A stretch of DNA of 64,000 nt. Source: Promethearchaeia archaeon (GTDB taxonomy: Archaea > Asgardarchaeota > Lokiarchaeia > Sigyniarchaeales > SOKP01). The translations under genes were made by a program, and so were the position numbers. Below the pieces are notes generated by a model, which saw only the letters and a program-made list of their open reading frames with translations, did not search any database and was not told the DNA's origin. Below are positions 3,571 to 29,215 of this stretch, one piece after another. Location of the stretch: the NCBI GenBank assembly GCA_036478875.1, contig JAZGEW010000025.1:10132-74131 (forward strand). Direction: 5' to 3'. Within the stretch, counting starts at the first letter, position 1. Each line of letters opens with the position of its first letter.

Positions 3571-5853
3571 TTAGGTCCGTTTGTAAATAAACCGCTCCCA
3601 ACTTTTTCTGGAAGGCATTTCTTCAGGCATTCCCTTTCTTCTACGAATCTCCATAATGAGATCTTCTTCTAAAGAGCCAGGAACTTTTTCAAATCCTAAA
3701 AATTCATATCCAAAGAAAGCTCTTCCCTGTGTTGAGCCTCTAATATCATCAGCAATGCCGATAGTCTCTGCCGCAGGGATTTGACCTTGAATTCTGACAT
3801 ACTCACCCTCTGGAACAACATTGGTAATTCGACCACGTCGCTTTGTTATGATAGCAGTGACACTTCCTTCAGTTCCTTGTGGTGACTTTATGTCTATTTT
3901 CTGGACTGGTTCGAAGATATGTGGATTTGCGTCTAGCATGGCTAATGACATAGCAGAAAACGCCATTCCCGCAATCTGTCCATAAGATGTGTGTCTGGTA
4001 TCCTCGTGAATAGTCATATCCGTAAAAATTACTTTAATTCCAGTAGCAGGTTCCTTTGCTATAATACAATTACCTAGCCAATCTCTAAAAGCTGCACTCA
4101 AATAAGATTTAACACGATCAAATCTCTGTAATCCCGAAGTACCATTTACAAGAGCACTTCCTTGATATACATCAACAATACGTTTGGCTTCTTTTGCATC
4201 CCATCCAGCTTCTTCTCTAAGTATTTTAGCTCGATCTTTATCATTTTGTAAATCATTAACTTTCCCGGTTTCGATCAGATGTTCAGTTATTTCATCCAAA
4301 GGTTCTATGTATAATAAAATACGATTATGCGAGTTTGCTGATTTGGTATAATAAGTTGGACTTTTTTCAGTAATTTTTTCTCTATAAACGATTATTGGTT
4401 CTCCGATATTAATATTAACTTGTTTATTTATCCTTTTTACTAAAATCTCGATCTGTAATGGATCGATTCCTGATAGAATAAATTCTCCTGATTCTTCATC
4501 CCTTCTATATTCTGCTGTTGGATCTGCTTTAAGCCATTTGCTTACAACATCATCTAATTTATCAATTTCATGCGGATCTTTTGGTTTAATGCTTCTAGAG
4601 ACAACAGCTTCACATGCATAATGAATTTTTTCGAAAGAGGGTAATCTCTTCCTTTCTTCTCTATCTTTAGGTACGGCATTGGTCGACATAAAAGTCTCTC
4701 CAGAAGGGCAAATAAAACCAAATATTGCAAATAAATTACCTGCAGGGATCTTAGGAATGTCTAAAATGTCCGTAATTTCCATAACACCTAATCTTTTCAC
4801 TCGATTGCTCGAATCACTATTTACTAGATAAATTGAATCAGTTTGATTAAACGTACCCGAAAAAACACGACCTATAAGAGTTGGTTGAAAATTCCTCTTA
4901 GGATCAAGGAATATCTTGGTAATCATCCCGTACAGTGGCCCGTTTGGGTCACTCTTCTGTAGAGCTTTACCTAATTCGGAATTTAGGTCACCTCCCCATA
5001 TATGAGGGATTCTATATTTGGAAGCTGCAATAGGATCTGGAAGATGGTCTACAATCATTCTTAACATAGGCTCATCCAAAGGTAAATTATCTCTTAACCA
5101 CTGGATATCTCCTTCATTATATTTCTCAAAAACATCTTGAGGTTTCATACCTTTTTCAAGTAAAATTTCATAAGTAAAACCCCATCCATGTTTAGCTGAG
5201 CCAACCGCAACGGAATTTTTAGCAAAATCAATACTCCAATTTGATCCTTCAGGTCTTACTTTTTTAATTAAATCATTAATTTCTCTTGTGATTTTATCGA
5301 TTTTCTCAAAAGTTTCTTGAGGACTTAGTTTTAATTCACTTATCAATCTGTCAACCTTGTTAATATAAAGAACGGGTTTGCAGTATTCTTCACCAACAGA
5401 CAATCTAATATTAGTTTCTGTTTGTGTCATAACTCCTTCAAGAGCGTCTACTAAGATTATAGCACCATCTGAACCTCTGAGGGCTCGAGATACTTCCCCT
5501 GTAAAACTGATATGACCGGGAGTATCATTAAGTTGGATAATATAAGGTTCTTCGTCATCAGGTTTTCTCGAATCATTAAATGCCAGGAGTACTACAGAAG
5601 TAAAAATTGTGATGCCTCGCTCTTGCTCCTCGTCTTTCAGTAAACTAAGTATGTCTTAATTTATATCTGAATCGGTCATTTGGAGCTGTCCAGCGTCTTC
5701 AGGTCTCATAAGCCCAGCTCTGCGTAGCAAGTAGTCGGTGGCTGTTGTTTTGCCATGATCTATGTGAGCGGTGATTGAAAAGATTCTTTTCTTCTCATAT
5801 GAGCCAGAAGTAACGAGTGCGCTGATTTCATCAGGATTCTTTACTTTAACCAT
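3571..5853 (-). CDS. fusA: Translation elongation factor EF-2 family protein, two exons (5853..5665 + 5634..3571), 750 aa after splicing
   Basis: AHIDHGKTT lies in ORF 5656..5853. The same frame resumes after a 30-nt insert with DEEQERGITIF...NDTPGHISF...DALEGVMTQTET and joins ORF 3571..5430, which has NKVD and EF-2 domains II-V. May be the Asgard aEF-2 paralog. Confidence 0.92.
5635..5664 (-). other. Putative 30-nt bulge-helix-bulge mRNA intron in EF-2
   Basis: mRNA reads UCAG-AU^A-UAAAUUAAG-ACAUA-CUUAGUUUA-CUGA-AA^G: 4-bp central helix UCAG/CUGA, two 3-nt bulges and a 9-bp hairpin. Contains in-frame UAA. Removal gives TDSD|DEEQERGITI. Confidence 0.88.
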
Positions 5854-26523: not shown

Positions 26524-27084
26524 ATGAAAGATAATCCCATAACAATTGGATTTGACGATGCAACTTTTAAGTTAAAAACAAGTGTTAAAACAACTCAATT
26601 AATTGGGGTAATCTGTCAAGGAACAAGAATGGTAAGAGTTGTAAGAGATGATATAAAGATAGATGGCAACGATGCAACTGAAAAAATAATAAAACTAGTT
26701 AGAGACAATGAAAAACATGTACAATATATTTTAACTCATACAATAACTTTTGGTGGGTTTAATCTTGTTAATTTAACTGATATCTATAATGAAACAGGAA
26801 AACCTATTATCGCTATAACAGAACGAAAAGTAGATTTCGATTCTGTAGAAAGCGCTCTAAAAATTAAATTCCCTCATACATATAAAAATAAATTAAGATA
26901 TATAGTTGAGGCGGGAAATTTATATGAAACAGAAGTGAATACAGCAGGTGGTATATCAAAAATATTTTTTCATTACAAGGGTATTAGCGTTAAAGAAGTC
27001 GAGTCACTTTTAGAAAAAATATGTATAGACTCCAAACTACCAGAATCAGTGAGAATGGCACACATAATTGGAAAAATATTTTGA
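26524..27084 (+). CDS. DUF99 family protein (endonuclease V-like / endonuclease dU)
   Basis: IGFDDA, DGNDAT, TFGGFN and LPESVRMAHII. Confidence 0.88.
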   Translation: MKDNPITIGFDDATFKLKTSVKTTQLIGVICQGTRMVRVVRDDIKIDGNDATEKIIKLVRDNEKHVQYILTHTITFGGFNLVNLTDIYNETGKPIIAITERKVDFDSVESALKIKFPHTYKNKLRYIVEAGNLYETEVNTAGGISKIFFHYKGISVKEVESLLEKICIDSKLPESVRMAHIIGKIF

Positions 27085-27100
27085 GAGTTAATATTTTTAT

Positions 27101-27574
27101 CTAATCTTTTTCAATTTCATATTCCAAAATTTCACGCATTCTTTCTCGCAGGTCCAATCTGATAGCAGACATTCCATAGGTGGGTATACCTAATTTTTTC
27201 TGAATTTTCTTTGCGTTTAATGCACCTGGAAGATCTTGTTTATTCGCTATAGCAATAATTTTTGTAGTCATATATCGTGAGAACTTTTTAAATGCATCCT
27301 TAGTTTTTTCAATATTATCTTCTGTAGAATCACATACTAAAACAGTCAAGCCTGCACCTCTTAAGAAATCTTGCCACATAAATTGATAACGTTCTTGACC
27401 TCCAAAATCCCAAATATTTACCTTTTTCCCATTGAGTACAGAATTCTCAATATCTAATCCTACTGTCGGATTTCTTTCTTTCGATATCTCTCGACCTTGA
27501 AGTAAAGATACTAAAGATGATTTTCCAACGCTACTTAATCCTAATAGACATATTTTTTGTTTTGTTGTATGAAC
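27101..27574 (-). CDS. Small GTPase (Arf/Rab-like); start codon uncertain
   Basis: The frame of ORF 27101..27379 is open upstream to 27580 and encodes KICLLGLSSVGKSS, PTVG and WDFGGQERY, followed by NKQD and SA. Confidence 0.85.
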   Translation of the reverse strand, partial: VHTTKQKICLLGLSSVGKSSLVSLLQGREISKERNPTVGLDIENSVLNGKKVNIWDFGGQERYQFMWQDFLRGAGLTVLVCDSTEDNIEKTKDAFKKFSRYMTTKIIAIANKQDLPGALNAKKIQKKLGIPTYGMSAIRLDLRERMREILEYEIEKD

Positions 27575-27877
27575 TTTTAATCAACCTTTTCTAAATACAA
27601 TGTTCTTATGTAGAAAAGGCAAATAAAGCTACAAAAAAGAAAATAATATTCGTATGATACCTACATATTCTTTAAAGAATATCTTTATTCTCTAAAATCT
27701 ATTCCTTAGGACTTAAAAAAATTGAAATTAGAAAATAAATACAATTTTCAAAAAATTTAGCTTAAGCTAAAACTCCTTGCTAGAAATAACTGTTATATAA
27801 ATTCAATTCGAAATATTTTTATGGTATTAGCATTAATAAAAAAAGAGGATTATAAAAAAAACAGTATTTTTTGAATT

Positions 27878-29215
27878 TTAAGCTCCAGTTTCAATGTCCT
27901 TAACGATGCCGACCGCGACGGTTTTAGGTTTAATCTGAGAAATTCAGATTGTTCTACCCATATCGCGTACAGCAAATCGGCCCATTTCTGGAAAGTCGTT
28001 ATATTTTTCAAGGCACATTTTTTTAATCGGCTGTAGTTCAACAATGGCAGATTCATTTTTCTTGAGAAACTTAGGTGAGTCTTCTATCACTGCTCCTGTT
28101 TTTTGGTCTAATTTTTTAACTAAACTCGAAAATTTCGCAGCTACTTGTGCTGTATGTGCATGGACTACAGGGGTATAGCCTTGTGCAAGTGCTGTAGGGT
28201 GCCAGATAACTATAATCTGTCCCGTCCATTTTCCCTTTGGTGTGATTACCGTAGGTGGATCTTTTGGATGCCCTAAACAATCTCCTCGACTTGCATCCTC
28301 TAATGTAATACCTCGAATACTAAACCCTATGTTGTCACCAGGAATTGCTTGTTCAATCTCTTCATGATGCATTTCAATACTTCGAATTTCCCCTTCAAAT
28401 TCAGTTGGCATGATAAGAATTTTATCTCCTTTCTTTAAGATTCCAGTTTCAACTCTACCTACAGGAACTACTCCAGTTCCCTTAATTGAATAGGAATCTT
28501 GAATGGGAAGTCTTAAAGGTTTACCAGTCGGTTTTTCAGGAAGAATAAATTGATCAATTGCTTCCATTATAGTTGGTCCATCATACCAAGCTAATTTATC
28601 ACTCTTCTTTGATAAATTATCCATAGCCATTCCACTAGTTGGAATGTAATTTACATCCTTGAAACCAATGCTTTTAAGAAGATCACCAACTGAATCCTTG
28701 CATTCCTTAAATCGTTCCTCAGAATAATCGTAAACATCAGCTTTATTGATAGCAACAACTAATTGTTTTACACCTAGAGTTTGTGCTAAATAAGCATGTT
28801 CACGAGTTTGCCCATTAGCTGCGATTCCAACCTCCATTTCTCCTTTCTTACCTGAAACAACGAGGATAGCAGCATCAGCTTGGCTCGCGCCAGTTATCAT
28901 GTTCTTGACAAAATCTGCGTGGCCTGGCGCATCGATGATTGTGAAGTACTTTGACTTGGTTTCAAATTTTCGAAAAGCAAGGTCAATTGTAATACCTCGC
29001 TGTCTCTCCTCTTTCAACCTATCGAAGACAAAGGCATAAGACCATGAGTCTCTATCATATTCTTTCGCAAGTTTTTCTAATTCACGTGCTTCTCGTTCTG
29101 AGACAGCCCCAGCTTCTATGAGTAAAGCACCCATCATTGTACTTTTGCCGTGGTCAATGTGCCCGATTATGACTAAATTTAAGTGACTTTTTTGTTTTGA
29201 GCTCATTTTAATCAT
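27878..29215 (-). CDS. tuf: Translation elongation factor EF-1alpha, two exons (29215 or 29206..27954 + 27923..27878)
   Basis: GHIDHGKST, RGITID, DAPGH and NKAD. After a 30-nt insert the same frame supplies the missing conserved C-terminus TVAVGIVKDIETGA-stop. Confidence 0.95.
27924..27953 (-). other. Putative 30-nt bulge-helix-bulge mRNA intron in EF-1alpha
   Basis: mRNA reads CGCGAU-AU-GGGU-AG^A-AC-AAUCUGA-AUUUC-UCAGAUU-AA-ACCU-AA^A-ACC-GUCGCG: central helix GGGU/ACCU, 3-nt bulges, 7-bp hairpin and exon-exon helix CGCGAU/GUCGCG. Contains in-frame UGA. Removal gives RDMGR|TVAVG. Confidence 0.87.

Follow-up and report, generated by a model that had tools for sequence, protein, structure and literature searches.

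Why does the EF-1alpha gene of a Promethearchaeota (Asgard) archaeon stop short of its conserved C-terminal end, when the missing residues lie in the same frame a few codons downstream? The gene lies on the minus strand of a 64,000-nt stretch of contig JAZGEW010000025.1 (positions 10,132 to 74,131 of GenBank assembly GCA_036478875.1), hereafter the window; positions below are those of the window unless a contig is named. Its open reading frame (ORF; 29215..27944) encodes 423 amino acids (aa), ends in ...GRFAVRDMGRTI, and is closed by a TGA. Beyond the TGA, the same frame reads ISQIKPK and then TVAVGIVKDIETGA up to a TAA, and once the 30 nt from 27953 to 27924 are taken out, the ORF has 435 codons and includes the conserved RDMGR-TVAVGIVK. 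A first-pass annotation had read these 30 nt as a bulge-helix-bulge (BHB) intron, and translation places the insertion, the TGA and the continuing TVAVGIVK frame on the minus strand where it had put them. We consider it very probable that the element is a pre-mRNA BHB intron, spliced by EndA and RtcB, in the only EF-1alpha gene of this organism.

The metagenome-assembled genome (MAG) to which the window belongs (3.43 Mb, 162 contigs, 28.9% G+C; the window is on contig C25) contains one EF-1alpha-class match (E 4.6e-287), and the runner-up is at E 3.4e-27. The 423-aa ORF scored above cut-off for NCBIfam TIGR00483/NF008969; the TIGR00483 match spans profile positions 2-414 of 427 and leaves the C-terminal positions unmatched. 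Within the genus, EF-1alpha was present in 51 of 54 genomes, with a stop at this site in the window's genome alone. The insertion was missing in 23 of 23 same-genus EF-1alpha loci (L002-L024), which run RDMGRTVAVGIVK uninterrupted; the 23 do not include loci L025-L030, which belong to other families and gave no match to the search motif.

Using a degenerate pattern drawn across the site, we identified 58 metagenome stretches: 46 were trivial (uninterrupted genes), 6 were unrelated ORFs, and 6 were EF-1alpha genes into which 30 nt are inserted at this very site (contigs L222, L225, L231, L245, L265 and L272). The exact 25-nt core of the intron had no match in metagenome contigs, and a degenerate regular-expression search for more copies of its 3' part gave only noise besides two known copies. 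Aligned with the window, the six contigs gave seven sequences, five of them distinct, in which 88.8% of cells were paired vs 19.2-48.0% in six slid controls, where partners were moved by 1-3 columns with relatedness kept. Compensatory changes occurred at four pairs (central pair 4 and stem pairs 3, 5 and 6) in the same-site copies and at none in the slid controls; central pair 4 is U:A in the window and A:U in the other copies. The covariation score was matched by 1 of 500 shuffles, a figure that, for a small set of related sequences, is not a probability. Based on the alignment alone, RNAalifold returned the same central helix, stem and exon-exon helix.

The predicted fold of a 71-nt stretch around the element has a free energy of -26.1 kcal/mol (z = -4.5), and none of 200 shuffles was as stable. 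The helices, bulges, 7-bp hairpin, 2x2 internal loop and exon-exon helix described in the first-pass annotation are all present in this fold (Table 1). In the window, the 5' bulge is set off from the hairpin by the 2x2 internal loop AC/AA; homologs have a 9-position stem, and two of them (L225 and L272) pair at 9 of 9 stem positions. A fixed pattern, which requires 4/4 central pairs and no fewer than 7/9 stem pairs, matches 4,636 of 6,851,110 positions in the genome (~7e-4 per position); at EF-1alpha, it sits in the sole register that restores the conserved protein.

The sequence behind the stop codon evolves as a coding sequence. Across the five distinct copies, codons 1-9 of exon 2 differ only at synonymous third positions; coding constraint behind a stop is a prediction of splicing. 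Read as codons, the intron itself varies freely (TI*ISQIKPK, IS*ISQLNPI and LS*IYRLSLK; asterisks are stops), and an in-frame stop is present in all five copies. These observations also bear on stop-codon read-through or recoding, by which the TGA would be translated as an amino acid and EF-1alpha would carry a 10-residue insertion. The insertion is in frame and its length is a multiple of three, as read-through would have it; however, the would-be inserted peptide is unconserved whereas the RNA pairs are conserved, and it would split RDMGR^TVAVGIVK (carets here mark junctions or insertion points), which is unbroken in every intronless homolog read. With X in place of the stop, NCBIfam aligned the translation as far as residue 428 (profile position 419 of 427) and not across the insertion, a result that speaks neither for nor against read-through. 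We give read-through next to no credence, and the wider family of elements, described below, adds to the case against it.

The position of the junction can be read from the homologs. In the window alone, the 30-nt boundaries fit four registers, as AAC is repeated at both ends. Four homologs (L222, L225, L231 and L272) have U as the last base of the 5' bulge and so AGU (Ser) as the unspliced codon, and only the cuts AG^U ... NN^A yield the Arg of all intronless genes. Since Arg is restored in these four homologs only by AG^N and NN^A cuts, the junction is fixed after the second base of each bulge, the very place where the first-pass annotation had rebuilt Arg as AG^A by canonical cuts.

This junction is relevant to translational bypass, in which the ribosome would leave an uncut mRNA before the TGA and land 30 nt downstream. 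The bypass element of phage T4 gene 60 has a stop codon and a hairpin inside an ORF, with the downstream frame continuing the protein, and the EF-1alpha locus superficially resembles it in this respect: the stop comes right after the presumed take-off region, a stable hairpin lies over it, and the protein is continued downstream. Unlike in gene 60, the presumed take-off and landing codons are unmatched (ACA and ACC), and the other family members offer no matching pair. Bypass needs neither the 4-bp helix nor the 3-nt bulges, yet both are kept by compensatory change, and in the four homologs above Arg is composed of AG + A, with the joint inside a codon rather than between codons. We regard bypass as exceedingly improbable.

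From these features and the known pathway, we infer as follows how the RNA would be cleaved and ligated, by which enzymes, and what would become of the intron. In the pre-mRNA, the terminal GGGU of exon 1 would pair with ACCU in the intron to form a 4-bp helix between two 3-nt bulges, with the intron hairpin closing one side and the exon 1-exon 2 helix CGCGAU/GUCGCG closing the other; transcription through exon 2 would let the exon-exon and central helices form around the intron hairpin. EndA would then cleave each bulge after its second base, RtcB would ligate AG and A into the Arg codon, and the 30-nt intron would probably be circularised. The mature mRNA would yield a 435-aa EF-1alpha ending in ...RDMGR-TVAVGIVKDIETGA. 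Translation of unspliced mRNA, or by an early-arriving ribosome, would end at the stop that is the third codon of the intron and release a 423-aa protein that lacks the last 14 residues; the first-pass annotation had likewise derived an unspliced product short of the C-terminal end, and its arithmetic is right.

The RNA might also be cut for regulation, such that the usual product is the 423-aa protein or a cleaved, unstable mRNA and splicing is rare or conditional. The relaxed motif of the window (see below) could slow splicing, and the in-frame stop is retained in five of five same-site copies; however, the retained UGA belongs to the upper, conserved part of the stem and need not be selected as a stop. 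As the sole EF-1alpha copy, the gene must yield a working product and supply active factor. Purifying selection acts on exon 2, and every homolog read conserves the 14 residues that the short protein would lack. We therefore judge a predominantly regulatory role to be quite unlikely, and splicing to full-length EF-1alpha remains our preferred reading.

Genes for the presumed splicing enzymes are present in the MAG. Three ORFs of ~200 aa matched the EndA catalytic domain (PF01974) above cut-off; those on contigs C59 and C36, the two that were scanned, carry the EndA N-terminal domain too. The ORFs on C59 and C156 are near-duplicates, and the one on C36 is divergent. With roles and catalytic triad judged by eye, this set would fit catalytic and structural subunits of a hetero-oligomer. 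In the accessible text of PMC5829648, Asgard EndA is described as an (alpha-beta)2 enzyme with an L1 loop that permits relaxed motifs. RtcB is encoded by one gene (PF01139, E 3.3e-172). Together with the absence of the insertion in the 23 relatives, the four compensatory pairs and the synonymous changes in exon 2, the EndA and RtcB genes strengthen the interpretation of the element as a BHB intron that the first-pass annotation had proposed. In a separate aragorn analysis of this 88%-complete genome, just 21 tRNA genes were identified, 12 of them called with an intron; many others may be hidden by multiple introns. Two tRNA-Ala introns, 29-30 nt long at position 32/33, have the same build of helix, bulge and mini-hairpin.

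Several observations weigh against the intron reading, and some of them concern structure. The window motif is relaxed, not canonical: A.A and C.A appositions lie at the stem base, and a U:A pair and a 1x2 internal loop separate the exon helix from the central helix. In terms of strict hBHBh' stacking, h' of the window consists of two non-standard appositions followed by 7 bp, and h consists of the U:A pair, the 1x2 loop and 6 bp; the motif thus fits the relaxed rather than the strict hBHBh' form. RNAalifold favours a 5-bp central helix with the 3' loop shifted, in which the first A of the 3' bulge pairs with U27960 as a fifth central pair and the 3' bulge is moved by one. Structure alone is weak evidence at 29% GC: a loose genome scan for BHB motifs that restore an ORF (variable stem and loop, at least 40 codons on each side) gave 297 matches vs 290 for a decoy with an altered pairing rule, so the scan has no discriminating power for the number of mRNA introns in this genome. 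In addition, archaeal transcription and translation are coupled, and coupling may let ribosomes reach the intron ahead of its removal.

Other points concern the data. Among 54 species representatives, the insertion occurs in this MAG only; the MAG is 88% complete with 6.4% contamination, and the insertion is unconfirmed in same-organism reads. In a search of sequencing runs, the highest share of sampled words in any run was 0.27, and no RNA or DNA run covers 27700-27940 (X1 and X2, DNA; X17 and X18, RNA). RNA and DNA contigs that reach the site end at 27950-27957, and their loose ends are exon 2 of insertion-less relatives, so that they carry no weight for or against splicing. A 151-nt RNA contig from X17 that covers 27951-28070 has one difference in 120 nt of exon 1, and the loose-end consensus of the two X17 records there runs into exon 2 with no intron between, disagreeing with exon 2 of the window at 8 of 30 positions. 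The X17 contig could be chimeric, or it could come from a close strain with another 3' end, possibly through recombination at the intron site.

The contamination, the lack of same-organism reads or contigs over the site and the unmatched 25-nt core would be compatible with a broken gene or an artefact, whether by mis-assembly, a recent inactivating insertion or a contaminating strain. Yet this is the only EF-1alpha gene of the genome, and six independent contigs, all of them from other assemblies, have a homologous insertion at this site, downstream of which they differ only synonymously. The insertion lies in exactly the frame-restoring register, and RNase HII retains similar elements in 49 of 51 genomes. 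A broken gene or artefact is accordingly very unlikely in our view, and we retain the spliced BHB intron as the explanation of the locus. The coordinates of the element and of similar elements in other genes are collected in Table 1.

Table 1. Parts of the EF-1alpha gene and its probable BHB intron in the window, with like-built elements at other sites. G000 is the genome of the window; other G-numbers and all L-numbers are labels of compared genomes and loci. Carets mark insertion points.
Feature	Position or locus	Strand	Basis or remarks
EF-1alpha exon 1, 420 codons + AG of Arg codon	27954..29215	-	ORF list, translation, TIGR00483/NF008969
Probable 30-nt BHB intron, in-frame TGA 27946-27944	27924..27953	-	comparison, covariation, fold z = -4.5
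EF-1alpha exon 2, A completing Arg codon + 14 codons (TVAVGIVKDIETGA), stop 27880-27878	27881..27923	-	translation; same residues directly after RDMGR in relatives
Central helix, 5' strand GGGU, exonic	27956..27959	-	pairs with 27926-27929; 100% of cells paired, 5 distinct sequences
Central helix, 3' strand ACCU, intronic	27926..27929	-	fold, covariation, RNAalifold
5' bulge AGA, inferred cut 27954/27953	27953..27955	-	canonical BHB rule; homologs with U as third bulge base
3' bulge AAA, inferred cut 27924/27923	27923..27925	-	homolog comparison
Intron hairpin, 7 bp AAUCUGA/UCAGAUU (27950-27944 with 27938-27932), loop AUUUC	27932..27950	-	fold, homologs
Exon-exon helix, 5' strand CGCGAU	27962..27967	-	fold, covariation, RNAalifold
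Exon-exon helix, 3' strand GUCGCG	27914..27919	-	fold, covariation, RNAalifold
EF-1alpha, other site, before IIGHIDHGK, 30 nt	G019 (L021)		
EF-1alpha, other site, APGHAD^FVKNM, 30 nt	G004 (L024)		
EF-1alpha, P-loop site, GHIDHGK^ST, 32 nt, frame-shifting	G001, G005, G045 (L022/L023/L171)		
EF-2 paralog BHB intron, 30 nt, in-frame TAA, site A DSD^DEEQERGITI	5635..5664	-	exon 1 5853..5665, exon 2 5634..3571
aEF-2 (main gene), 30-nt insertion with TAA, directly after GHIDHGK	G000 C13:36197-38404, L293	-	
RNase HII 30-nt BHB intron at GIDEAG^RG	G000 C110:14469-14498, loci L173-L220	-	
DeoC/LacD-family aldolase, candidate 30-nt insertion with TAA at AIDHG^YF	G000 C144:21914-21943, L292	-	

In the window, EF-1alpha is adjoined by a gene for a small GTPase (TIGR00231, E 1.3e-16; 27101-27571, minus strand) and by a homolog of endonuclease dU (NF001977, below its cut-off; 26524-27084, plus strand).

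The EF-1alpha element has similar 30-32-nt mini-introns beside it in other protein-coding genes of the genus and its taxonomic family, and together they form a family of elements that the first-pass annotation had not recognised; one more member lies in the window itself. Its members share a common build, with a 4-nt exon strand, a 3-nt bulge, a stem of 9-10 positions, a 5-nt loop, a 4-nt intron strand and a second 3-nt bulge, for a total of 30 or 32 nt. All 11 elements parsed have 4/4 central pairs, and removal of each restores a conserved motif. The hosts are EF-1alpha (four sites), aEF-2, an EF-2 paralog (two sites) and RNase HII, with a DeoC-family aldolase probably a further one. TGA, TAA and TAG all occur as stops inside the elements, often two or three per element; this mixture excludes a changed genetic code, and no single reassignment would suit read-through. 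The 32-nt member at the EF-1alpha P-loop shifts the frame, so read-through is excluded for that member. The EF-1alpha gene with the element before IIGHIDHGK has an additional lone in-frame TAA (YS*DRF) where relatives carry a Glu codon.

The EF-2 paralog, which is present in 51 of 54 genus genomes, has the site A intron in 14 of them, including the one in the window; the intron is missing in the others read, and one locus at a contig end (L163) was assigned to neither state. At site A, 97.2% of cells were paired vs 23-45% in slid controls, and one pair was compensatory (G:C in 8 distinct sequences, A:U in 3). Four genomes carry an intron at site B (AH^IDHGK), one of them in addition to that at site A. 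The aEF-2 insertion was found in G000 alone among the 54 genus genomes.

The RNase HII intron is widespread in the genus. In 49 of 51 genus genomes, the RNase HII gene has an internal stop and a match 30 nt longer than that of the intron-less G063; introns were read in 47 genomes plus G000, as two loci (L213 and L221) did not match the search motif. Across 45 distinct sequences, 85.6% of cells were paired vs 22.8-48.3% in slid controls, four pairs were compensatory, and none of 500 shuffles reached the score. In the central helix, the base opposite the exon G is mostly U or C, and that opposite the exon U is A or G. Based on an order-wide sample of 121 genomes, which takes in 101 of this family besides G000, internal stops in RNase HII are confined to genera of this family, with none in 18 gene-bearing genomes of three other families. 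In the same sample, the RNase HII match of G037 is 630 nt long and stop-free; RNase HII matches in genera g12 and g15 are ~45 nt longer.

The aldolase candidate was examined in G000 only. The nucleotides at its insertion site (GAU CAU GGA) are those at the GTPase P-loop sites, and Pfam matches the aldolase across the insertion with E 2.3e-18; a PF01791 search of the genus at E <= 1e-25 did not list this gene. A fixed-architecture scan of G000 gave 83 matches with an in-frame stop, mostly at AT-rich gene ends, and among 12 of these that were inspected, RNase HII and the aldolase looked real.

How such elements come and go was addressed with a gene tree of the last 453 nt of EF-1alpha, in which 64 of 82 candidate rows were kept, 6 of them intron-bearing; L225 and rows with <420 nt upstream or not matching the regular expression were left out. 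The same-site intron occurs in three separate places of the tree, which corresponds to at least four gains or losses (the starred branches force four), and the nearest relatives of intron-bearing alleles (L264, L261 and L237) are intron-less. Exon-exon pairs number 9-11 of 11 in the intron-bearing alleles; among the 58 intron-less alleles, 35 have 7 or 8 such pairs and 13 have at least 9. Either the exon helix is selected once an intron is present, or introns settle where a helix already exists.

Similarity between introns at different sites is uneven. The aEF-2 intron, found only in G000, is identical at 21 of 30 positions to the RNase HII intron of the same genome, the best among 118,160 BHB-like 37-mers, several of which reach 20. 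In both, the exon strand is UGGU and the junction reads UGGUAR^A; the EF-1alpha junction is GGGUAG^A. EF-1alpha and aEF-2 introns share 17 of 30 positions, a weak resemblance that 47 of 17,849 background elements equal. Of nine sites, four coincide with or adjoin the nucleotides that encode (I)DHG(K), and one of these four belongs to the aldolase, an unrelated gene. The distribution on the tree, the 21/30 identity and the look-alike sites hint at copying to similar sites. It is conceivable, though in our estimation somewhat doubtful, that the 30-32-nt elements are mobile, protein-spliced mini-introns still spreading into Asgard mRNAs and possibly tRNAs, with entry sites chosen at the nucleotide level, the 4-nt intron strand pairing with the exon and junctions being alike. 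If so, the archaea closest to eukaryotes would offer a way to study RNA-level intron gain in protein-coding genes, through reverse splicing by EndA and ligase followed by a DNA copy.

The closest known system is the cbf5 pre-mRNA of Crenarchaeota (Desulfurococcales and Sulfolobales), which, according to the accessible text of PMC2738675, contains a BHB intron removed by the tRNA-splicing endonuclease, with splicing demonstrated by cDNA. Both are short BHB introns in a protein-coding gene with patchy gain and loss among relatives. The cbf5 intron is linked to a hetero-oligomeric EndA and removed by the tRNA-splicing endonuclease, which for EF-1alpha is deduced from sequence. In contrast to cbf5, the elements described here occur in Asgard archaea (Promethearchaeota), are hosted by EF-1alpha, aEF-2, the EF-2 paralog and RNase HII, and are found in several genes per genome and at several sites per gene with a uniform 30-32-nt build. 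The EF-1alpha element would work like the cbf5 intron and like non-canonical tRNA introns, yet it is not the cbf5 intron: both its host gene and its phylum are new, and it is a member of a family. Within the genus, cbf5 (TIGR00425) has no internal stop in 54 of 54 genomes. In G022, cbf5 (contig C51:6293-7254) appears as two overlapping frames, which could reflect a frameshift or an insertion that is not a multiple of three.

For pre-mRNA introns, the accessible text of two EndA papers from 2018 and 2025 (PMC5829648 and PMC12397907) cites only three cbf5 references, among them papers of 2002 and 2006. We found no report of protein-coding BHB introns in Asgard archaea, Lokiarchaeota or Promethearchaeota in open-access papers and bioRxiv main texts, although a report elsewhere is possible. 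In the accessible parts of PMC11291895 and bioRxiv 10.64898/2026.10.13.758758, non-canonical Asgard tRNA introns are described as short, located at BHB motifs, gained many times and differing between close relatives, and it is Jordiarchaeia and Atabeyarchaeia, rather than the present lineage, that are rich in them; as far as its accessible text goes, the preprint gives no general arrival route for tRNA introns. The mRNA elements are likewise short BHB insertions whose presence varies among close relatives and that have no known arrival route. The two papers, in those parts, treat tRNA genes only, and the preprint has the word 'mRNA' nowhere and 'protein-coding' once, with a different meaning; here the host is an mRNA, so that reading frame and translation matter. 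For archaeal EndA in general, the accessible text of PMC5829648 gives the canonical hBHBh' motif as the substrate and describes (alpha-beta)2 and epsilon2 enzymes as cutting relaxed motifs. The EF-1alpha element resembles the canonical substrate in its 4-bp helix between two 3-nt bulges, its flanking helices and its symmetric predicted cut positions, and departs from it in that both flanking helices in the window start with mismatches.

These elements have consequences for annotation. Gene callers will truncate EF-1alpha (423 vs 435 aa) and split aEF-2, the EF-2 paralog and RNase HII in two, and split genes depress completeness estimates of MAGs. EF-1alpha and EF-2 are markers in the phylogeny of archaea and eukaryotes. 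The elements also raise a mechanistic question, namely how translation into an unspliced intron is avoided under coupled transcription and translation. Being present or absent between close relatives and occupying several sites per gene, they provide a natural system for studying how introns arrive and persist. If confirmed, splicing of the EF-1alpha intron would mean that the protein-only tRNA-splicing machinery of Asgard archaea splices mRNAs too, including those of core translation genes.

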